Assembly (NCBI RefSeq): GCF_048403405.1
Contig: NZ_CP183129.1
Reading direction: 5' to 3' (one strand)
Origin: Escherichia coli
GTDB taxonomy: Bacteria > Pseudomonadota > Gammaproteobacteria > Enterobacterales > Enterobacteriaceae
Length of the DNA stretch: 64,000 nt
A model generated the notes under the pieces. It was not told the DNA's origin, made no database searches, and was given only the letters and a program-made list of their open reading frames with translations. Numbering within the stretch: the first letter of the stretch is position 1; every line of letters begins with the position of its first letter. Both the position numbers and the translations under genes were made by a program. Of this stretch, positions 3,659 through 51,647 are shown piece after piece.

Positions 3659-4156
3659 ATGGATTTGTCACAGCTAACACCACGTCGTCCCTATCTGCTG
3701 CGTGCATTCTATGAGTGGTTGCTGGATAACCAGCTCACGCCGCACCTGGTGGTGGATGTGACGCTCCCTGGCGTGCAGGTTCCTATGGAATATGCGCGTG
3801 ACGGGCAAATCGTACTCAACATTGCTCCGCGAGCTGTCGGCAATCTGGAACTGGCGAATGATGAGGTGCGCTTTAACGCGCGCTTTGGTGGCATTCCGCG
3901 TCAGGTTTCTGTGCCGCTGGCTGCCGTGCTGGCTATCTACGCCCGTGAAAATGGCGCAGGCACGATGTTTGAACCTGAAGCTGCCTACGATGAAGATGCC
4001 AGCATCATGAATGATGAAGAGGCATCGGCAGACAACGAAACCGTTATGTCGGTTATTGATGGCGACAAGCCAGATCACGATGATGACACTCATCCTGACG
4101 ATGAACCACCGCAGCCACCACGTGGTGGTCGACCAGCATTACGCGTTGTGAAGTAA
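3659..4156 (+). CDS. sspB: ClpXP specificity-enhancing adaptor SspB
   Basis: 165-aa ORF with acidic C-terminal tail ending GGRPALRVVK; 5 bp downstream of sspA. Confidence 0.95.
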   Translation: MDLSQLTPRRPYLLRAFYEWLLDNQLTPHLVVDVTLPGVQVPMEYARDGQIVLNIAPRAVGNLELANDEVRFNARFGGIPRQVSVPLAAVLAIYARENGAGTMFEPEAAYDEDASIMNDEEASADNETVMSVIDGDKPDHDDDTHPDDEPPQPPRGGRPALRVVK

Positions 4157-4160
4157 TACT

Positions 4161-4193
4161 AAAACAGGCCCTGGCGGCCTGTTTTGTCTTTTT
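4161..4193. terminator. Bidirectional terminator hairpin between convergent sspB and dcuD
   Basis: aaaacaggccctggcggcctgttttgtcttttt: GC stem flanked by A-run and T-run. Confidence 0.75.
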
Positions 4194-4199
4194 AATGAC

Positions 4200-5567
4200 T
4201 TAATAAAATAGCGTGATTGTGGCAATCATATTCACCACGAAACCGACTGCCATGGGGATCGCTGTCCGCTTCACTACCGCAAAAGGCGAAACGCCTGCAA
4301 TTCCTGACGTAACGACCACCACCGCAGTAATCGGCGAAACAGCGCGCGCTAGCGTCGTGGCAAAATGCATCGGCATAATCATTACAACCGCTGGCACATG
4401 TAGTCCGGCTGCGATATTCGGAATAAGACTGGCAAATGACATAAACGGCGCATTGCCTGAGCCCATCACAATGGCACAAATGGCAATGACCAGCGCCATA
4501 ATAATCATCACGCCAATACCGCCCAGACCAGAATGCTCCGCACCCCTGATAACCGCATCGACAGTGCCAATCGTCGTTAAGCCTTTCGCAAATATTTCAC
4601 CCGCGACCACCAGCGTTACCACGTTGGCAAACTGCGTACCCATGCCGTCAAAAAACGCCTGCACATCATCCATTGTTTCACGCAAGTTATGCTTGCGGAA
4701 GAACTCAACAAACATCGTCACCGTCAAACTCAGTAACATCACCACCACCAGATGCAGTTCTGACTGCATCAGCCCGACGTGGGCAAGGAACAGCGAGCCG
4801 AGCATCAGGATTAACGGCATCACCGGTAAAATGGCGTAATAGAGCGGTGGGACATTATCGAGAGCTTTTTGCTCTGCCTGTTCGTGATTGATATTTTTAT
4901 CTTTTTTGTCGAAAGCGCGTTGCACGAAAAAGTGGGAGATCGCCACCGAGATAATGACGCAAGAGGCGACCGGAAGCTGGTAGTGGAAGAAGTAAGTGGC
5001 AATTTTCATTCCTGCGACCTGGGCAGCAAAAATGGAGTTCGTTTCCAGAATCCCCCACTCAATGGACATCGTGGTTGCGATAACCGCCACCGCAGAGAGG
5101 CGACTTACTCCCAGACTCACCAGCGTCGGAAATAAGGTGACCATCAGCAACATACCCAGACCGGAGGCGCTGGTAATAAACTGCGCCATGATTTGGCCGA
5201 TGACGTAAGTTGCCGACAGAATAATATACGGCGAGCGAATGAGTTTTAACGGGCGGCTTAACAAGCTCACCATCGCGCGACTTGCCCCTATGCGCTCCAT
5301 ATAGCGGGCATAACCGCCCACTGCCATAATCGACAGCCCCAATCCGGCAATGCGGTTGGACAGCATGCGCAGGATTTCATTATAAATATCGACGATCAAG
5401 TAGCCGCTGCTTTTGGCGGGATCGAGCACACCACCGAACCCTAACCAGACACCGCACATCATCAGGAAGATACCTGCGACAGCCAGCACCACCTGAGGTT
5501 TGTAGTTTTTCAGGATCAAATAGCCCATCGTAATTAATACGATGACAGATATAATTATGCCGAACAT
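4200..5567 (-). CDS. dcuD: Putative anaerobic C4-dicarboxylate transporter DcuD (DcuC family)
   Basis: Multi-pass membrane protein; internal ATG at 5567 gives 455 aa starting [25 protein letters not shown]; ORF track start at 5585 is 6 codons longer. Confidence 0.9.
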
Positions 5568-5946
5568 TGTTGAACTCCGTGTCAAAAGAAAACGGTCAAT
5601 CCCATAAACGGCAGATTGAAAACAATGATGTTATATTTTTTGCAAGGCTATTTATGGTGCGGATGTCGTGTTTTTAATTGTAGGTGAGGTGATTTTTCAT
5701 TAAAAAATATGCGCTTATGATTATTTTGTAAGAACACATTCATAATATTCATAATGCTCGTGAATAGTCTTATAAATAATTCAATCGGGATGTTTTTATC
5801 TGCGTTACATTAATTTTTCACAATAGTTAATTATTCCGTTAATTATGGTAATGATGAGGCACAAAGAGAAAACCCTGCCATTTTCCCCTACTTTCAATCC
5901 TGTGATAGGATGTCACTGATGATGTTAATCACACTGACCTTACAGA

Positions 5947-6738
5947 ATGGGCCTTATGAACGCATTTGATTCGCAAACCGAAGATTCTTCACCTGCAATT
6001 GGTCGCAACTTGCGTAGCCGCCCGCTGGCGCGTAAAAAACTCTCCGAAATGGTGGAAGAAGAGCTGGAACAGATGATCCGCCGTCGTGAATTTGGCGAAG
6101 GTGAACAATTACCGTCTGAACGCGAACTGATGGCGTTCTTTAACGTCGGGCGTCCTTCGGTGCGTGAAGCGCTGGCAGCGTTAAAACGCAAAGGTCTGGT
6201 GCAAATAAACAACGGCGAACGCGCTCGCGTCTCACGTCCTTCTGCGGACACCATCATCGGCGAGCTTTCCGGCATGGCGAAAGATTTCCTTTCTCATCCT
6301 GGCGGGATTGCCCATTTCGAACAATTACGTCTGTTCTTTGAATCCAGCCTGGTGCGCTATGCGGCTGAACACGCCACCGATGAACAAATCGATTTGCTGG
6401 CAAAAGCACTGGAAATCAACAGTCAGTCGCTGGATAACAACGCGGCATTCATTCGCTCAGACGTTGATTTCCACCGCGTTCTGGCGGAGATCCCCGGTAA
6501 CCCAATCTTCATGGCGATCCACGTTGCCCTGCTCGACTGGCTGATCGCCGCACGTCCAACCGTGGCTGATCAGGCTCTGCACGAGCATAACAACGTTAGC
6601 TATCAACAGCATATTGCGATCGTTGACGCGATCCGCCGCCACGATCCCGATGAAGCCGATCGCGCGTTGCAATCGCATCTCAACAGCGTCTCTGCTACCT
6701 GGCACGCCTTCGGTCAGACCACCAACAAAAAGAAATAA
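5947..6738 (+). CDS. nanR: GntR/FadR-family repressor of sialic acid catabolism NanR
   Basis: 263-aa ORF with N-terminal winged HTH (GntR type) and FCD-like C-terminal domain; directly upstream of nanA. Confidence 0.93.
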
Positions 6739-6801: not shown

Positions 6802-6824
6802 GGTATAACAGGTATAAAGGTATA
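6802..6824 (+). promoter_or_regulatory. NanR operator: three direct GGTATA repeats in the nanA promoter
   Basis: GGTATAACAGGTATAAAGGTATA, with hexamers at 6802-6807, 6811-6816 and 6819-6824, about 40 bp upstream of nanA ATG; matches the described NanR operator architecture. Confidence 0.85.
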
Positions 6825-7753: not shown

Positions 7754-7861
7754 GTTTTTTCCCCTCGCTCGCCCCTACCGGGTGAGGGGAAATAAACGCA
7801 TCTGTACCCTACAATTTTCATACCAAAGCGTGTGGGCATCGCCCACCGCGGGAGACTCACA

Positions 7862-12609: not shown

Positions 12610-12792
12610 TATCTGTCCCTTTATATGGCGCTGTGTTGAATAATGGAATCAGCTATACGCCGGGCATCTGCCGGTAACAATCCAGATGTGCGTATTACAT
12701 TGGTTTTCTTCAGATTATGCGAGGCGCTTTCCAGTACGAAAGGAGAATTTCAGCGCCGACTCTTTTCTGAGGAGGCGGCGCTGGGACAGAGC

Positions 12793-18684: not shown

Positions 18685-19358
18685 ATCGTGAACCTCCCCC
18701 AGGCTCTGCGGGAACCCCACTTCCGAACCGCTGCGCACGGGCACAGAAAGAGCGTGGCGACGGGGTTTGCGTGTCATACGCGCGCCTCGCATTCGCCCCC
18801 TTGTTGTCCTTTTCGCATCGGTTAATACGGTGAAGAGGGGATCTCAATTACTGCATAAATATGATGAGCAGGCTGCTCATCCAGAAAGCTTCCAGCGGAT
18901 TTCCAACTTATCGGGAAAGCTGATACAGGTCAAATGGCAAGCTTATTGGTACAGAAATGTGCTTTAGCGCAAAATTCTTTATTAATTAGCTGAAATTAAA
19001 ATGGATTTTCTCTTTAAGGCTAAAAGGGGAGTCGTTAGAGAAACTGCCAATTCCTGACTGTCATAAAGGCGTGTTAACCCTTATCCTGCCTTGAACTGAC
19101 GAGAAAACCAGCATTTTATACTGCCTTAATTGTTAATGGCATTTTATGCTACTGTTTTTGCCTAAAATCTATAAGGAGATAAAAAAATCTGACACAAGAT
19201 AAGCAAAAATGATTTATGTGATCATGCATGAAATTTCGGTAATTTTGATTGATTATGCAGTTGATAAAAGCAGGCCGGGACGATTGATCCAGGTCATCGC
19301 CGAATTGAGCTAAAAATGGCAGGCTTTGGCCTCTTTTCAAGGCGCGGTCTATCAGATT
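18685..19358. promoter_or_regulatory. AT-rich divergent control region of gltBD and yhcC
   Basis: About 670 bp non-coding AT-rich spacer between divergently oriented gltB and yhcC; expected location of the gltB promoter; individual factor sites not resolved here. Confidence 0.5.
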
Positions 19359-51191: not shown

Positions 51192-51199
51192 AATTCCAG

Positions 51200-51234
51200 A
51201 AAAGAGACGCTGAAAAGCGTCTTTTTTCGTTTTG
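51200..51234 (+). terminator. Rho-independent terminator after secG-leuU
   Basis: aaaagagacgctgaaaagcgtcttttttcgtttt. Confidence 0.85.
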
Positions 51235-51647
51235 GTCCTGATCTGAGGAATGGTTGTCAGGTATCTGTATCTCGTCCAGTTGCTTTACTCGTAGCTGGTA
51301 CTTTGAAACGATGGTGCCGGTACGCCTTAGTTATAAACTTTTCCCTTCTGCTGACATAATTGGCACTTTATTGTGTCAACTCCAGTTCCGGTACGAATAC
51401 GGATATGTTTACTTCTCGATAAACCATCCTGCTCCTGTCAGTATAACTACTGATGGCTACGTTCTGCGTAATGTTTAGAGACGCATTGATAATGTTATTT
51501 AATTACTGAGAACAATGGCCGCATCATTTAAAAAGAAAAAACTAACAGTGTTTCGGTCTGATATGGATCAGAGTTGAAAAACATGTCTGATATAAAATTG
51601 AACATTGTTGATAATTGTTTATATTGGTTGTGAACTTGGATTTCTGG

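Follow-up and report, generated by a model that had tools for sequence, protein, structure and literature searches.

The window, a stretch of 64,000 nucleotides, is a segment of the Escherichia coli chromosome that extends from zapG to pnp and matches E. coli strain TUM14771 with 100% identity over the query. The region under study is the spacer between the divergently oriented genes dcuD and nanR, which is set at exactly 5568-5946 by the dcuD ATG at 5565-5567 (minus strand) and the annotated nanR ATG at 5947:

4200-5567, minus strand: dcuD coding sequence, 455 aa, transporter of the DcuC family, labelled "dcuC" by PGAP
5568-5946: dcuD/nanR divergent intergenic spacer, 379 bp, GC 0.33
5947-6738, plus strand: nanR coding sequence as annotated, 263 aa

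In all records seen, PGAP gives the first of these genes the name "dcuC, anaerobic C4-dicarboxylate transporter DcuC"; the gene is the dcuD paralogue (b3227). Farther along the window, gltD is followed directly by yhcG (12610-12792), and the gltF-yhcADEF fimbrial block known from K-12 is absent in this strain.

The GC content of the spacer contrasts with that of the window (0.516), and an equally low value is reached by just 0.19% of all 379-bp segments. The window contains 31 intergenic regions with a length of 50 bp or more; in AT content the spacer ranks first among them, followed by one with a GC of 0.372. We found that A/T homopolymer tracts of at least four bases are present in 12 copies vs. 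6.3 expected from composition-matched shuffles (p ~0.01) and those of at least five bases in six copies vs. 2.1 (p ~0.01), while TpA steps are twice as frequent as the window average. The first-pass annotation had described dcuD and nanR as divergent genes parted by about 380 bp of very AT-rich DNA with multiple A/T tracts, which holds in every respect: 379 bp separate the two ATGs and the tracts reach about twice the shuffle expectation. The composition is uneven, with a GC of 0.31 in positions 5568-5867 and of 0.42 in the nanR-proximal part (5868-5946). Low GC is also seen in the spacer between the yhbX 5' end and tRNA-Leu (51192-51647; 379-bp minimum of 0.33 at 51356) and in one part of the 674-bp gltB/yhcC divergent spacer (18685-19358; minimum of 0.346).

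It is in the less AT-rich final ~80 bp (5868-5946) that the core promoter of nanR is predicted to reside:

5883-5911, plus strand: predicted nanR core promoter, consisting of -35 TTCCCC (5883-5888), a 17-bp spacer and an extended -10
5903-5911, plus strand: extended -10 TGaTAGGAT of nanR (TG at 5903-5904, TAGGAT at 5906-5911)
6802-6824, plus strand: known NanR operator upstream of nanA, made up of three GGTATA repeats, the sole such array near the spacer

The CTGTGnTAnGAT sequence in this promoter is invariant across all 20 sequences compared, which represent seven genera. The T, A and T of the -10 hexamer are found in 15/15 sequences, and TGaTAGGAT as a whole does not vary among those 15. The element thus pairs a TGn motif with a TAnnnT hexamer, is placed at a suitable distance from the gene and is conserved. 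As in extended -10 (TGn) sigma70 promoters, the TG precedes a TAnGAT hexamer by one base, the -35 is weak and the conservation crosses genus borders; in contrast to that class, the hexamer carries a G at position 4 and the transcription start site, at ~5915-5919, is predicted, unlike those of mapped promoters. No start site for nanR or dcuD turned up in the supplements searched for Cappable-seq, ROSE, Conway 2014 and Kim 2012. A sigma70 ChIP-seq peak at U00096.2 position 3372531 (Myers 2013) corresponds to ~5929 of the window. IS5 insertions in the dcuD/nanR spacer are recurrent under selection for nan derepression, which is consistent with nanR expression being dependent on the spacer.

As for the beginning of the nanR gene, the annotated ATG at 5947 (MGLMNAF...) is not kept outside Escherichia and most Citrobacter, and ATA, CTG, AAA or other codons take its place in several species. 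The ATG at 5956 (Met4, MNAFD...) is present in all genera and, being universal, may be the true start of nanR.

Autoregulation of nanR, which the first-pass annotation expected to be encoded in the spacer, finds no support. The search for the GGTATA hexamer that it proposed yields no exact copy in 5568-5946; with one mismatch allowed there are just two isolated hexamers, and the closest double repeat has 4/12 mismatches. NanR is known from the literature to require adjacent GGTATA repeats, and with its operator missing from 5868-5946, nanR is probably not autoregulated via a canonical NanR site. The nanATEK-yhcH promoter/operator, at which NanR acts through the three GGTATA repeats, belongs to the same regulon neighbourhood, its array being located ~850 bp downstream; the dcuD/nanR spacer differs from it in that it has no GGTATA array, and hence no NanR operator region. 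What can be added to the earlier description is a position for the putative nanR promoter, free of a NanR operator.

The AT-rich remainder of the spacer proved to belong to a segment that also comprises dcuD:

4160-4186: bidirectional terminator hairpin common to sspB and dcuD, forming the left boundary of the cassette
~4186-5867: dcuD cassette, ~1.7 kb (dcuD and the AT-rich 300 bp upstream of it), with approximate junctions (within ~5 bp)

While the region is essentially whole in 4331 of the 5419 matching E. coli genomes, 1040 of the 5426 E. coli genomes searched are devoid of the cassette and display the order sspB, terminator, 107 bp, nanR. The dcuD-less genomes include O25b:H4-ST131, an O2:K1:H4 APEC and UPEC strains, which, on the basis of established typing, suggests that they represent phylogroup B2. 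Because the dcuD-plus and dcuD-less alleles can be aligned from ~5868 on, the stretch ~4186-5867, i.e., dcuD with 300 bp of GC 0.31, constitutes an indel. In a survey of 80 species representatives, cryptic Escherichia clades, E. whittamii and many Citrobacter were seen to carry dcuD at the sspB-nanR site. The gene is missing there in E. albertii, Salmonella arizonae, C. koseri, C. sedlakii, Kluyvera, Raoultella, Enterobacter, Lelliottia, Buttiauxella and others, and in most other genera sampled. The sspB-nanR spacer of 45 dcuD-less species measures 92-283 bp (median 115, median GC 0.46), which implies that nanR needs just ~75-100 bp of upstream DNA. What the first-pass annotation overlooked is that these AT-rich 300 bp form part of the dcuD cassette and are not regulatory DNA of nanR.

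Next to the right junction, the two E. coli alleles are strongly diverged. The 90 bp upstream of nanR show 46% identity between the window and the dcuD-less allele, while the corresponding patch of dcuD-less E. coli is 92% identical to that of E. albertii. Positions 5868-6067 share 74% identity with the dcuD-less allele (L001 3925-4130), the flanks 97-100%, and beyond the first 120 nt of nanR the identity between the alleles is 98%. Taken together, these values speak for an old haplotype difference rather than a recent deletion.

Such a pattern invites the question of whether dcuD was carried in by a mobile element or a foreign islet of recent acquisition, the AT-rich DNA being what remains of it, an origin that we consider very unlikely. 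The presence/absence polymorphism and the sharp junctions would agree with this origin, and so would the binding of the region by H-NS. In addition, the identity of DcuD homologues falls from 88-90% in Citrobacter to at most 77% in a 42%-GC organism and 60-66% in Desulfovibrio, with no other Enterobacteriaceae among the best 120 DcuD matches. Yet, no transposase, integrase, tRNA or flanking repeats are seen, and dcuD has a host-like GC3 and a divergence from Citrobacter equal to that of its neighbours. Indel polymorphism and a phyletic gap thus stand against host-like GC3 and neighbour-like divergence, of which the latter two rule out a recent horizontal transfer of dcuD; given that the gene has diverged to the same degree as its neighbours, any acquisition must predate or equal the Escherichia-Citrobacter split. 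The distribution of DcuD homologues suggests that such an acquisition was ancient. A search of the cassette for terminal repeats, target duplication, recombinase and transposase found none of these mobile-element hallmarks, and the only candidate for inverted repeats at its ends, a T-rich 9/10 match noticed by eye, was rejected, as it is absent in Citrobacter. The cassette resembles the small indel "islets" that distinguish E. coli phylogroups in being a 1.7-kb single-gene segment, either present or absent at a fixed site, and in having beside its junction a strongly diverged patch (46% identity) that is common to E. albertii. It differs from them by its lack of mobility genes and by its occurrence in Citrobacter as well, where it occupies this same site and shows divergence of species level, which makes the polymorphism an ancient one and not the outcome of a recent insertion.

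The dcuD gene itself is intact, with 455 codons and no indels, and its dN/dS relative to Citrobacter is 0.036-0.047, with synonymous sites that are saturated (dS 1.4-2.1) similarly to those of nanR. Its nucleotide identity to Citrobacter (77-80%) is that of the flanking genes, and its GC3 of 0.61 is neighbour-like. The intact frame, low dN/dS and neighbour-like divergence indicate that dcuD is functional and old at this locus, where it would have resided approximately since the separation of Escherichia and Citrobacter. By the same measures, this "cryptic" gene is maintained under strong purifying selection, and dcuD with its control region is a lineage-variable cassette under such selection. 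The DcuD homologues with 75-77% identity, from the 42%-GC organism (L084 and L085, 1011-7877), are located in a gene cluster encoding an Asp/Glu racemase (L085), two M20 peptidases, a MaoC dehydratase and a family III CoA-transferase; these genes may hint at the actual substrate of DcuD. A perfect hairpin (CATCGTA-loop-TACGATG; 5525-5545, minus strand) spans dcuD codons 8-15 and was flagged as terminator-like. Overall folding is no better than that of shuffles, and the hairpin is probably a chance product of the coding sequence.

Upstream of dcuD, the AT-rich DNA can be divided into conserved and unconstrained parts:

5574-5578, minus strand: Shine-Dalgarno GGAGT of dcuD, 6 nt upstream of the ATG, conserved in both Escherichia and Citrobacter
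5627-5641: block GATGTTATATTTTTT, candidate dcuD promoter or operator
5649-5676: block aTTTATGG ... GGATrTCGTrTTTTT, at the -35/upstream position of a minus-strand dcuD promoter, candidate activator site
5685-5756: conserved block of ~70 bp, candidate operator cluster
5757-5870: unconstrained AT-rich filler with indels, identity to Citrobacter ~0.32

Sharp footprints are kept in the spacer against a background of 0.32 identity and despite saturated dS. In the GATGTTATATTTTTT block, the 13 nt from A5628 to T5640 are invariant in 15 Escherichia/Citrobacter sequences and the two end positions are conserved in at least 90% of them; the block can be read as an extended -10 (TGtTATATT) on the plus strand or as TATAAC/TAACAT on the minus strand. 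The 5685-5756 block holds a plus-strand promoter-like TTTTCA-16-TATGAT (5694-5721), in which the key positions of TATGAT are retained in 14-15 of 15 sequences, as well as two tandem copies of ATTCATAAT at 5738-5755. Judging from conservation, the blocks in 5625-5756 probably contain the candidate promoter and operator of dcuD, which narrows the hunt for the dcuD inducer to ~130 bp of conserved sequence.

No minus-strand sigma70 promoter for dcuD exceeds the scan threshold in the spacer, and the best conserved -10-like elements point toward nanR. The plus-strand TGtTATATT (5629-5637) and TTTTCA-16-TATGAT could be real promoters, giving rise to long-leader nanR mRNAs or to a non-coding transcript that interferes with dcuD. 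The near-complete retention of the hexamer key positions between Escherichia and Citrobacter, at saturated synonymous divergence, and the absence of a plus-strand terminator before nanR are in line with this notion. We nevertheless regard it as unlikely, for the sigma70 ChIP peak is found at ~5929 and not in 5640-5730, the stretch up to nanR is unconstrained and has indels, and dcuD-less lineages run nanR without these elements. Moreover, AT-rich DNA readily generates promoter-like hexamers (three found vs. 2.1 expected), and the region gives no Rfam match and contains no conserved ORF. The Rfam covariance-model search of the spacer returned only sub-threshold eukaryotic snoRNA/lncRNA noise, none of the small ORFs of 21-36 aa in the spacer is conserved, and the putative leader RNAs of dcuD and nanR fold like shuffles (z-scores of -0.98 and +1.65).

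We also considered whether the spacer could be governed by ArcA or another global regulator. Consensus scans covered 20-odd regulators, and a single one gave a result above shuffles, namely an ArcA-box repeat at 5825-5846. It comprises a perfect WGTTAATTAW (5825-5834) and a copy with one mismatch (5837-5846; shuffle p ~0.02), and includes the direct repeat GTTAATTAT (5826-5834 and 5838-5846). In principle, the two GTTAATTAT copies could form an ArcA-P site repressing nanR or dcuD anaerobically. However, ArcA repeats are expected at a spacing of 11 bp and here it is 12 bp, and the repeat is Escherichia-only, being situated in the unconstrained filler and absent from Citrobacter. The searched text and supplements of the ArcA ChIP study (Park 2013) list neither an ArcA peak nor a gene entry. 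Matches to the CRP, FNR, Fur, NarL, IHF, Lrp and NagC consensus are no better than in shuffles, and for FNR there is no ChIP peak at the spacer even in an hns stpA strain (Myers 2013), so that we hold control by ArcA or another of these global regulators to be highly improbable. Equally indistinguishable from shuffles are the matches in the spacer to Fis, PhoP, CpxR, OmpR, MarA, LexA, PurR and Cra, to a FadR-type GntR half-site and to the Lang H-NS 10-mer.

RegulonDB lists dcuD as sigma54-dependent. On the dcuD strand of the spacer, the GG-N10-GC motif of sigma54 (TGGCAC-N5-TTGCW) is absent, the best matches having three mismatches and all being on the plus strand. A verified site exists elsewhere:

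7810-7826, minus strand: exact copy of the ChIP-verified sigma54 site TTGGTATGAAAATTGTA, in the nanA/nanT spacer (Bonocora 2015, OA06)

This site is directed antisense through nanA and nanR toward dcuD, which lies 2.25 kb away, and the RegulonDB listing of dcuD may rest on it.

Occupancy of the spacer by H-NS is documented in published data. In MG1655 (U00096.2), ChIP-chip regions extend over 3371957-3373402 anaerobically and 3371888-3374315 aerobically (Myers 2013, PMC3688515, Table S3), i.e., over 5058-6503 and 4145-6572 of the window, and the entire spacer lies inside both. The conversion of coordinates was anchored on the dcuD start and agreed within 2 bp when checked on the sigma54 site from Bonocora 2015, which was expected at 7820 and lies at 7810-7826. 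Both regions, 1.4-2.4 kb in length, have the spacer at their centre under two growth conditions of one study. The aerobic one takes in the whole of dcuD and starts no more than ~40 bp from the sspB/dcuD terminator; the anaerobic one is shorter and leaves out the 3' two-thirds of dcuD. The anaerobic list of the same study also contains two weak sigma70 ChIP-seq peaks within the dcuD coding region, at ~5433 and ~4910. H-NS covers about 14-16% of E. coli genomes overall, and the table of Myers 2013 also gives short "H-NS" regions over the highly expressed sspAB/rpsI. The supplements of a second H-NS study (Higashi 2016) contain neither the dcuD nor the nanR name and no nearby coordinates. These already public data, though from one study, corroborate the view of the first-pass annotation that the spacer is a region of the nucleoid-protein (H-NS) type, and the comparison with H-NS ChIP data that it called for shows the spacer occupied both aerobically and anaerobically; its remark that dcuD is reported as poorly expressed likewise agrees with the literature, where the gene is described as transcriptionally dormant (PMC12886548).

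The AT content, A-tracts and TpA steps of the spacer are those of an H-NS-silenced region, and in vivo occupancy (one study) accompanies them. The hns-related tables and papers searched have no dcuD entry, and it is from the occupancy that we infer H-NS to be the probable cause of dcuD silence. With a GC of 0.51 and a GC3 of 0.61, the coding portion of the cassette is not rich in AT, and therefore the classic silencing of foreign AT-rich DNA does not apply to the gene body. It is possible, albeit doubtful, that H-NS is incidental and that dcuD is silent for want of a working sigma70 promoter or of an activator that is active in the laboratory, the AT-richness being ordinary promoter/UP-element composition. 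The failure of any minus-strand promoter to pass the scan threshold, the poor -35 positions, the conserved blocks that suggest sites for a dedicated regulator and the sigma54 listing would all fit this explanation. On the other hand, the H-NS regions are kilobase-sized and centred on the spacer in both growth conditions, no other part of the window is as extreme as these 300 bp with their GC of 0.31, and the dcuD strand of the spacer has no sigma54 motif. The two explanations are not exclusive, and both can hold.

We favour, with a probability of roughly 0.65, the reading in which the shared control region of two divergent genes is composed of two evolutionary modules, the AT-rich dcuD module being coated by H-NS and dcuD kept silent. 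In the first module (5868-5946), the weak extended -10 sigma70 promoter (TTCCCC-17-TGaTAGGAT) would drive low-level expression of nanR. The second (5568-5867) is the dcuD upstream region, inherited with dcuD as part of the 1.7 kb inserted after the sspB terminator and before the nanR promoter. We propose that H-NS coats this AT-rich module and spreads into dcuD and the 5' part of nanR, and such a coat, together with the lack of a good minus-strand sigma70 promoter, would leave dcuD silent in laboratory conditions. The blocks in 5625-5756 would then most likely serve as the dcuD promoter and as site(s) for a putative activator/anti-silencer employed when some natural condition induces the gene.

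An AT-rich, H-NS-occupied divergent promoter region beside a lab-silent gene is of an ordinary, already known kind. Like the H-NS-bound promoter regions of silent or cryptic E. coli operons, bgl and the region upstream of fimB (PMC3173223 for fimB) among them, the locus possesses an AT-rich upstream region abundant in A/T tracts and TpA steps. With these regions it further shares a kilobase-scale H-NS ChIP domain that reaches into coding DNA, a gene silent in the laboratory and a spacer hit by IS5 insertion under selection. In contrast to these systems, the body of dcuD is not rich in AT and matches the neighbouring genes in age, and the documented parallel is one of H-NS occupancy rather than of derepression in hns mutants or of an anti-silencer. 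A more speculative extension, to which we attach little credence, is that the cassette, through an H-NS nucleation site and additional conserved plus-strand promoter elements situated just upstream of nanR, sets NanR dosage apart in dcuD-plus and dcuD-minus lineages, and that the conserved blocks in 5625-5756 answer a gut signal that unlocks dcuD. If so, the dcuD-minus group, i.e., ST131, other ExPEC-type strains and E. albertii, would have a different NanR dosage, and the threshold for sialic-acid catabolism and for NanR-dependent fimB switching would be shifted.

A separate rearrangement at the locus was noticed in E. coli ET846 (L002 2801-5391), where IS1 fuses codon 34 of dcuD to a truncated yhcF-like gene, with deletion of the spacer and nanR together with the complete nan operon and yhcG.
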